NCBI GenBank assembly: GCA_017864995.1
Contig: GCA_017864995.1_4097.1
DNA length: 64,000 nucleotides
DNA from: a phage
Reading direction: 5' to 3' (one strand)
A model generated the notes under the pieces. It ran no database searches and was not told the origin of the DNA. It saw nothing but the letters and a program-made list of their open reading frames with translations. Positions within the stretch are counted from its first letter, which is position 1. Every line of letters starts with the position of its first letter. A program made the position numbers and the translations under genes. Positions 10,149-10,227 of the stretch are shown piece after piece.

Positions 10149-10227
10149 CCGGGCGTATCTCAACGGTCTTCTAAACCGTCGTTAATCGAGTAACTGGAGT
10201 ATGCAGGTTCGAGTCCTGTCGCCTGGG
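10149..10227 (+). ncRNA. atypical tRNA-like gene (anticodon TCT, no D-arm, Ser-like variable hairpin)
   Basis: Acceptor ccgggcg/cgcctgg, anticodon arm acggt-cttctaa-accgt nearly identical to adjacent tRNA-Ser, hairpin gtta-atcgag-taac, T-arm gcagg-TTCGAGT-cctgt, CCA; only 7 nt where the D-arm should be. Confidence 0.4.

Follow-up and report, generated by a model that had tools for sequence, protein, structure and literature searches.

A phage tRNA-Ser gene is directly followed by a 79-nt element which has the acceptor stem, the anticodon arm and the T arm of a tRNA, carries the anticodon UCU and has no D hairpin. The question raised by this locus is whether the element is the remnant of a tRNA gene, a tRNA-like RNA with another task, or a tRNA which takes part in translation with a core other than the canonical cloverleaf. 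The window, meaning the whole 64,000-nt stretch of DNA that was analysed, is Asteriusvirus jumbo coliphage DNA, 99% identical to Turkey3 and WPEC3 and with a G+C content of 34.8%.

Anatomy of the element

The element occupies positions 10149-10227 on the plus strand, with an encoded CCA directly 3' of it (10228-10230). Inspection of the sequence agrees with what a sequence-only reading had described at this place as regards the coordinates, the acceptor stem, the anticodon arm, the T arm and the mere 7 nt, UAUCUCA, which occupy the position of the D arm. Most of the features which define a tRNA are present, namely a 7-bp acceptor stem with discriminator and CCA, a 5-bp anticodon stem with a 7-nt loop, U33 and a purine at 37, and a 5-bp T stem with a 7-nt UUCRANY loop. 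The D hairpin, a 3-4-bp stem between positions 9 and 26, is absent, and 15 positions of the Rfam model are deleted there. The anticodon arm and the T arm are 23 nt apart; this stretch comprises a linker of 8 nt, the 3' strand of a short helix (P2), a D-loop-like strand of 8 nt and 4 junction nucleotides. The features of the locus, with the support for each, are listed below.

10015-10044, plus strand: putative sigma-70-like promoter (TTGGGA, 18-nt spacer, TG-extended TATAAT), a consensus match about 10 nt upstream of tRNA-Ser; promoter-type consensus sites are no more numerous in the region than in shuffled sequence
10055-10144, plus strand: canonical tRNA-Ser(TGA) with encoded CCA, 61.7 bits, 4 nt upstream of the element
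10149-10155, plus strand: 5' strand of the acceptor stem, CCGGGCG (helix 1; 99% of cells paired, 6/7 pairs changed on both sides)
10156-10158, plus strand: junction U8 A9 U (UA in 162/163 listed family members)
10159-10161, plus strand: 5' strand of P2, CUC, D-stem-like and enclosing the anticodon arm (100% paired, 2/3 pairs compensatory)
10162, plus strand: lone spacer A, separating P2 from the anticodon stem and equivalent to position 26
10163-10179, plus strand: anticodon arm ACGGU-CUUCUAA-ACCGU (5/5 pairs compensatory; loop near-invariant in the family)
10170-10172, plus strand: anticodon UCU, inside the anticodon arm
10180-10187, plus strand: conserved linker CGUUAAUC (class I signature CGUUAAYC; 3-5 nt in its place in other subclasses)
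10188-10190, plus strand: 3' strand of P2, GAG (covariation with 10159-10161)
10191-10198, plus strand: D-loop-like strand UAACUGGA (family motif UAANYGGA)
10199-10202, plus strand: junction GUAU (terminal AU in 157/163 listed members)
10203-10219, plus strand: T arm GCAGG-UUCGAGU-CCUGU (Rfam alignment and covariation)
10220-10226, plus strand: 3' strand of the acceptor stem, CGCCUGG (sequence and covariation)
10227-10230, plus strand: discriminator G and encoded CCA (CCA encoded in 92/163 and discriminator G/A in 128/163 listed members)

Detection by standard tools

Default ARAGORN and a whole-window Rfam search each report six tRNAs in the window, and the element is not among them. A search of the local region with the Rfam tRNA model RF00005 under permissive settings gives 32.6 bits (gathering score 29, E 1.7e-5), with the D arm deleted and 20 nt inserted before the T arm. 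The sequence-only reading had proposed a check for a canonical cloverleaf with relaxed settings or a covariance model; relaxed ARAGORN returned none, its folds being mutually inconsistent and without a consistent D arm. By contrast with RF00005, a covariance model built from relatives of the window's subclass (R1) scores the element at 99.4 bits (E 2.6e-29), and all the family features are found in it: U8 A9, P2, UAANYGGA, AU before the T stem and an arginine anticodon.

Several alternative cloverleaves were considered, i.e. a tRNA-Asp(atc) called by ARAGORN at an 80% threshold, the tRNA-Leu(taa) of the 121Q annotation, the tRNA-TERM of phage 7t3 and an intron-containing tRNA-Val on the minus strand, and all were rejected because they are mutually inconsistent, have poor stems and find no support in covariation. 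The existing records of relatives mostly leave the element unannotated, and otherwise label it tRNA-OTHER, tRNA-TERM, tRNA-Leu(taa), tRNA-Val or plain tRNA. Folding energy is unremarkable, RNAfold placing the element at z = -0.61 relative to shuffled sequence, with a weak 4-bp hairpin in the 23-nt stretch.

Covariation and the P2 helix

Thirty members of the window's subclass were aligned without gaps over 79 columns. Standard pairs fill 98.5% of the cells, and 16 of the 20 pairs are changed on both sides; none of 500 shuffles reached the observed values, and sliding the partners lowered pairing to 35-47%. All four helices thus show compensatory changes and the loops are conserved, which contradicts the earlier suggestion that the element may be a pseudogene.

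The P2 helix surfaced when the search patterns were loosened. It pairs nucleotides 4-6 of the heptamer following the acceptor strand with the three nucleotides just before the conserved UAA, measures 3-4 bp (4 bp in some members) and encloses the anticodon arm, from which it is separated by 1 nt on the 5' side and by 3-10 nt on the 3' side. Of the 163 listed members, 138 have P2 fully paired; 2000 shuffles gave a mean of 43 and never more than 59, and slid registers gave 0. At least 11 Watson-Crick triplet types occur among the listed members, including CUC/GAG (that of the window), CAC/GUG, CCC/GGG, CGG/CCG, CGC/GCG, CAG/CUG, CAU/AUG, CGA/UCG, CAA/UUG and CUU/AAG. On its 3' side follow, in this order, UAANYGGA, 4-10 nt ending in AU, and the T stem. 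One subclass, whose 5' junction is 8 nt long, has a further pairing, between the nucleotide triplet preceding P2 and that following GGA (types AGC/GCU, AAC/GUU, AGU/ACU, AGA/UCU, AUC/GAU and ACA/UGU); a long helix stacks there on the anticodon stem, with UAANYGGA as a bulge of 8 nt.

These data also bear on the 23-nt hairpin which had been placed in the variable region and read as Ser-like. The 23 nt are indeed present; the hairpin does not hold up, being weak, with 4 bp and a closing pair that does not covary, and the Ser-like reading fails. A variable-arm hairpin of the class II type was rejected in favour of P2 because its pairing fails across relatives: besides the closing pair, AAG variants break the alternative YCG/YGG pairing.

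Distribution of the family

Judged by its relatives, the element belongs to a family of phage arginine tRNAs which is large and conserved and has hardly ever been annotated. A 141-nt query around it retrieved about 24 Asteriusvirus-type records at 93-99% identity, in which the element itself is 97-99% conserved; in hundreds of unrelated phages the query matched over the element alone, at 85-91% identity. These comprise Felix O1 and other Felixounavirus, Klebsiella Sugarland-like and KB57-like phages, phAPEC8-like phages, Salmonella 7t3, one Klebsiella jumbo phage, Pectobacterium phages and Streptomyces phages. Such a distribution does not fit the proposal that the element is a duplicated derivative of the adjacent tRNA-Ser, since it is about 90% identical to the copies in Felix O1, in Klebsiella Sugarland-like phages and in Salmonella 7t3. 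The anticodon stem ACGGU/ACCGU is, as had been noted, identical in the adjacent tRNA-Ser(TGA); it is also common across the family, so that its sharing with the neighbour is uninformative. The tRNA-Ser is likely to be a co-transcribed partner of the element and not its parent.

Pattern scans of uncultivated viral contigs, followed by a structural filter, raised the family to at least 163 distinct sequences, and members occur in prophages and tRNA arrays as well as in uncultivated viral contigs. A second pattern scan, in which only the 5' heptamer was freed, added zero loci. The family has the traits of tRNA genes: location in tRNA clusters, an encoded CCA, a UUCRANY T loop, U8 A9 and, across the listed members, a length of 74-84 nt to the discriminator, which is near that of a normal tRNA. 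The other tRNAs of the same clusters are canonical, with a median of five per locus.

Scanning one genome per prokaryotic species yielded 39 further valid members. Among their contexts are a Gellertiella prophage (with a prohead protease), sites beside weak integrase matches in Devosia and Aquamicrobium, and contigs of Acidobacteriota metagenome-assembled genomes (MAGs) with arrays of 15-25 tRNA genes. No family member was found in the chromosomes, prophages and plasmids of 5,426 complete E. coli genomes. A GC-rich member is present in synteny on two Actinomycetota MAG contigs of 0.33 and 1.28 Mb (L287 7633-7674 and L317 6533-6574), beside chromosomal-looking neighbours, i.e. an ABC-F ATPase, an SSB, a GDSL lipase and a BP74_N protein; neither a tRNA array nor a phage gene lies within the 8 kb examined. 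This member may be the Actinomycetota cell's own tRNA-Arg(UCU).

A protein partner was sought by an all-against-all comparison of ORFs within 2.5 kb of the element at 148 listed loci. It returned translated-tRNA artefacts and small HNH clusters, the largest real cluster covering 7 of the 148 loci, and no recurring family.

No published description of this architecture was found in full-text literature searches, which included a 2020 review of non-canonical tRNAs in which phages are not mentioned (PMC7609411). In a 2023 catalogue of candidate structured viral RNAs, one motif is described as sometimes overlapping tRNA-Arg calls of ARAGORN (PMC10690425); this motif may be the present family, unrecognised there.

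Anticodons and arginine identity

With the anticodon left free, the 163 listed members carry TCT (127), ACG (19), CCT (10), TCG (4), GCG (1), CCG (1) and GAT (1), a distribution which overstates TCT, since that loop was fixed in several of the earlier patterns. With the exception of GAT these anticodons belong to arginine, 162 of the 163 being NCU or NCG, and the members with ACG keep the anticodon loop CUACGAA. A scan for the architecture only, with no requirement on GGA or on the anticodon, over 3.44 Mb of collected loci again returned arginine anticodons and GAT only, a result which is partly conditioned because the loci had been fetched by family patterns requiring the GGA motif or CTTCTAA.

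At least 13 contigs bear two or three genes of this kind, and the arginine anticodons within each contig are different. Where a family member and a canonical tRNA-Arg share a locus, their anticodons differ in 58 of the 67 listed cases; TCT is present in both in the other nine, which means that the rewired form, as the non-canonical gene is called here, is not always a simple substitute. Arginine identity in E. coli depends on recognition by ArgRS of C35, U36/G36 and A20 (review PMC9976931). The UCU anticodon of the window element supplies C35 and U36, and an A follows GG in every listed member, that A being required by the search pattern itself.

The two GAT (Ile) cases (L178 12513, plus strand, and L233) are the sole non-arginine anticodons seen in the rewired architecture, and one of them has GGU, not GGA, in the D-loop-like strand. 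Another isoleucine tRNA was noticed: tRNA arrays of Acidobacteriota and one viral contig repeatedly gave an unusually long tRNA-Ile(TAT) call of 91-95 nt (L279 4827-4918, L286 6545-6637, L306 6013-6105, L352 3951-4045, L304 5450-5544 and L139 9282-9372). It adjoins a rewired tRNA-Arg(TCT) in L279, L286 and L306, and may represent another non-standard tRNA, one that reads a rare codon ending in A.

A G3:U70 wobble (window positions 10151/10224) is found in the window element, in the copy of Felix O1 and in the sister phages' canonical tRNA-Arg allele. In E. coli this pair is the identity mark for alanine. Alanine identity was considered and dropped, since the acceptor stems of the family vary freely and G3:U70 is not conserved across it; it is therefore no family trait.

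Allele exchange and codon demand

The slot of the element is not always filled by the same gene. Ten Asteriusvirus records hold there, between the same flanks, a canonical 77-nt tRNA-Arg(TCT), 100% identical among the ten, and the slot is taken by the rewired gene in the window and also in 121Q, PBECO4 and some 20 further records. Between the two alleles identity is only about 70%; the gene of 121Q is identical to that of the window.

The rewired gene appears to be the only tRNA-Arg of its phage. Default ARAGORN and the R1 model find no other tRNA-Arg in the window, and ARAGORN finds none in 308 kb (88%) of the 348 kb of 121Q (1-85 kb and 125-348.5 kb), in which Gly, Ser, Ser, Met, Asn and Thr tRNAs are present; the other 40 kb of 121Q were equated with the tRNA-Arg-free part of the window beyond the tRNA cluster, on the assumption of collinearity. 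Felix O1 has a canonical tRNA-Arg(ACG) plus the rewired TCT gene.

AGA is a rare codon in E. coli, where it is read by a scarce tRNA. In the ORFs of the window it makes up 23% of the arginine codons, or 8.0 per 1000, the figure for AGA usage that the sequence-only reading had proposed to obtain. The same reading had left room for an unusual decoder of AGA/AGG, and this suggestion gains comparative support, as the anticodons of the family are essentially all arginine and the slot is that of a canonical tRNA-Arg(TCT) in sister phages.

A proposed permuted core

The UAANYGGA strand offers candidate equivalents of A14, R15, G18, G19 and A20, and canonical phage tRNA-Arg genes, among them the canonical allele of the sister phages, have AAYUGGA as their D-loop motif. 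A D-stem-like helix and a D-loop-like strand would therefore have been kept and wired differently. In canonical numbering, the order of segments would read 1-9, 22-43, linker, 10-21, ~47-48, 49-76, which amounts to an internal permutation of the central domain.

In such a molecule P2 would replace the D hairpin, extend the anticodon stem directly and be closed by the anticodon arm itself. The strand leading into the anticodon stem would come directly after U8 A9, and its partner strand, together with the D-loop motif, after the anticodon arm; UAACUGGA, with the GG that in a canonical tRNA docks on the T loop and the A that follows it, would leave P2 on the 3' side and run to the T arm. The three new junctions (9 to 22, 44/45 to 10 and 21 to 48) would join nucleotides which are already neighbours in the canonical L-shape. 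The classical tertiary contacts of yeast tRNA-Phe are 8-14-21, 9-12-23, 10-25-45, 15-48, 18-55 and 19-56, and the invariant U8, AA, GG and U before the T stem may well be the partners which these contacts require. Since the junctions would join spatial neighbours and the contact partners are kept, an L-shaped fold of the rewired tRNA is plausible by analogy.

Function and alternative explanations

The structure is conserved, the anticodons are restricted to arginine, and in a single slot the gene alternates with a canonical tRNA-Arg. These findings are best explained if the element is a functional, charged, AGA-decoding phage tRNA-Arg(UCU) with a non-canonical core, and we consider this probable. 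The gene would be transcribed as a dimer with tRNA-Ser from the host-type promoter, and RNase P would cut the precursor. Host ArgRS would charge the product through C35, U36 and the adenine of GGA, as the equivalent of A20, and the charged tRNA would read AGA and possibly AGG, with demand arising from a codon that is frequent in an AT-rich phage and served by a scarce host tRNA. To our knowledge, no tRNA of bacteria or phages that lacks a D hairpin works in translation, and EF-Tu, the ribosome and ArgRS may reject the rewired shape.

We also lean, by a smaller degree, towards a wider reading, according to which a class of translationally active tRNA-Arg has gone unrecognised in many phage lineages, in tRNA arrays and perhaps in bacterial chromosomes, its D domain being internally permuted and its topology maybe selected for escaping a host factor which attacks or modifies canonical tRNA-Arg.

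The main rival explanation is that the element is primarily an anti-defence RNA: a tRNA-Arg look-alike acting as a decoy, or as a cleavage-resistant replacement, when a host tRNA-targeting nuclease is active. The replacement version overlaps with the function in translation preferred above, and the pure decoy version needs no charging. Phage tRNAs which neutralise tRNA-cleaving defences are documented (PMC11464382, PMC12673091, PMC10264068), and the use of T5 tRNA-Lys against PARIS and of T5 tRNA-Tyr against Retron-Eco7 provides parallels. A core tied to one isotype and about 90% identical across unrelated phage groups looks like the outcome of selection beyond codon supply, and some phages retain a canonical tRNA-Arg(TCT) beside the rewired form. 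Moreover, 121Q has an RNA ligase, a polynucleotide kinase and a CCA-adding enzyme, so the lineage invests in tRNA repair. Against this, no defence system targeting tRNA-Arg was found in the tRNA-defence literature searched, and in Asteriusvirus the rewired gene replaces the sole phage tRNA-Arg. A pure decoy, furthermore, would have no need for a perfect acceptor stem, an encoded CCA and a canonical T loop, nor for a full set of arginine anticodons complementing the canonical arginine tRNAs of the same cluster. On balance we regard an anti-defence role as unlikely.

Considerably less likely still is a tRNA-like RNA with no part in translation, be it a primer, a regulator, a non-ribosomal arginyl donor or the recognition or landing site of a homing endonuclease. 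HNH endonuclease genes do lie directly downstream of the element in Felix O1 and in Klebsiella Riker, and an exact swap of tRNA genes between conserved flanks is what nuclease-driven exchange would be expected to produce. Yet no protein family recurs beside the element, as seen in the 148-locus comparison; the conservation of the anticodon loop and the restriction to arginine point to codon reading or recognition by ArgRS and not to a site at the DNA level, and the compensatory changes operate at the level of RNA.

A pseudogene left by the loss of the D arm, or a chimera derived from the adjacent tRNA-Ser, either of which would accord with the failure of default tRNA finders, the anticodon stem shared with the neighbour and a folding energy no better than that of shuffled sequence, is refuted by comparison: over 160 distinct sequences keep their helices by compensatory changes and their loops nearly invariant, the element is 97-99% conserved in about 24 Asteriusvirus records, and it is present in unrelated phage families.

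Comparison with known systems

A close counterpart of the rewired gene is the canonical tRNA-Arg(UCU), exemplified by E. coli argU, the T4 tRNA-Arg and the 77-nt sister allele, with which it shares the CUUCUAA loop, the 7/5/5-bp stems, the UUCGA T loop, the AAYUGGA motif and, in Asteriusvirus, the slot itself. The rewired form differs in that it has no D hairpin, the strands of the D stem being split by the anticodon arm and the D-loop sequence placed after that arm. A non-canonical order of segments is also known from the permuted tRNA genes of Cyanidioschyzon merolae, in which the termini are permuted and a canonical tRNA is regenerated by processing. In the rewired family, by contrast, the termini are standard and segment 10-21 has moved behind the anticodon arm, which would leave the mature RNA itself non-canonical. 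The tRNA-like domain of tmRNA likewise combines acceptor and T arms with a D-loop analogue without a D stem, and the window copy shares its G3:U70, but tmRNA has no anticodon arm.

D-armless tRNA-Ser(AGY/AGN) of metazoan mitochondria resembles the family in its three-way junction, its short 5' connector and its AGN codons (PMC7609411, PMC4013460). The mitochondrial D-armless tRNAs, however, are organellar, have degenerate T-loop and D-loop contacts and need adapted factors, whereas the rewired family is of phages and bacteria and has a canonical T loop, a GG-containing strand, P2 on the anticodon stem and arginine anticodons. The loss of D-loop/T-loop contacts which marks the mitochondrial type is not seen in the element, in which the canonical T loop and the conserved GG strand are retained. 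The bacterial 8/4 and 9/3 cloverleaves and the allo-tRNAs, non-canonical tRNAs that also came from large-scale sequence searches of bacteria and phages, have altered lengths of the acceptor and T stems and keep the D hairpin (PMC5389517); the rewired family keeps the 7/5 arrangement and has a rewired D domain.

Implications

If active, the rewired RNAs would be the first tRNAs outside organelles to lack a D hairpin and would indicate that the L-shape can be built by a different strand topology. If they are charged and decode, then bacterial RNase P, ArgRS, EF-Tu, the ribosome and the modification enzymes accept a topology beyond the cloverleaf. Felix O1, 121Q/PBECO4, phAPEC8-like and Klebsiella Sugarland-like phages would all carry an arginine tRNA which annotation has missed or mislabelled; calculations of phage codon supply would change, and labels of the 'tRNA-TERM' kind could not be safely taken as suppressor tRNAs. 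The family would, in addition, supply a natural scaffold for the design of orthogonal tRNAs. The restriction to arginine and the exchange of rewired and canonical alleles would make a clean genetic system for studying the purpose of the rewiring, including the evasion of tRNA-targeting immunity.

Further observations on the tRNA regions

In Felix O1, the annotated start of ORF45, an HNH endonuclease gene (L005 2551-2943), overlaps the 3' part of the rewired tRNA. An HNH endonuclease gene likewise starts inside or right after the rewired tRNA in a second locus (L006 2592-3101), and the tRNA clusters of these phages are dense with HNH genes.

The repair genes of 121Q are genes 438, 443 and 539 (L371 26797-27939, L371 29036-29968 and L372 32066-33178), for RNA ligase, polynucleotide kinase and tRNA nucleotidyltransferase (the CCA-adding enzyme); taken together, their predicted products amount to a kit for the repair and maturation of tRNAs.

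In the window, the Ser-Arg tRNA pair is directly followed, at 10252-10738 on the plus strand, by three tandem paralogous ORFs of 54 aa, which overlap by ATGA and each start with MTHEEWM; in relatives they are annotated as three 165-bp hypothetical genes. Farther along the same strand, two tRNA-Thr(TGT) genes (13974-14047 and 14054-14127) stand 6 nt apart, with different stems and about 74 bits each, and the corresponding place in 121Q (L375 12896-12969) holds only one tRNA-Thr. The second tRNA-Ser has the anticodon GCT in the window (12274-12363) and ACT in 121Q (L375 10464-10555), a change of the wobble base 34.
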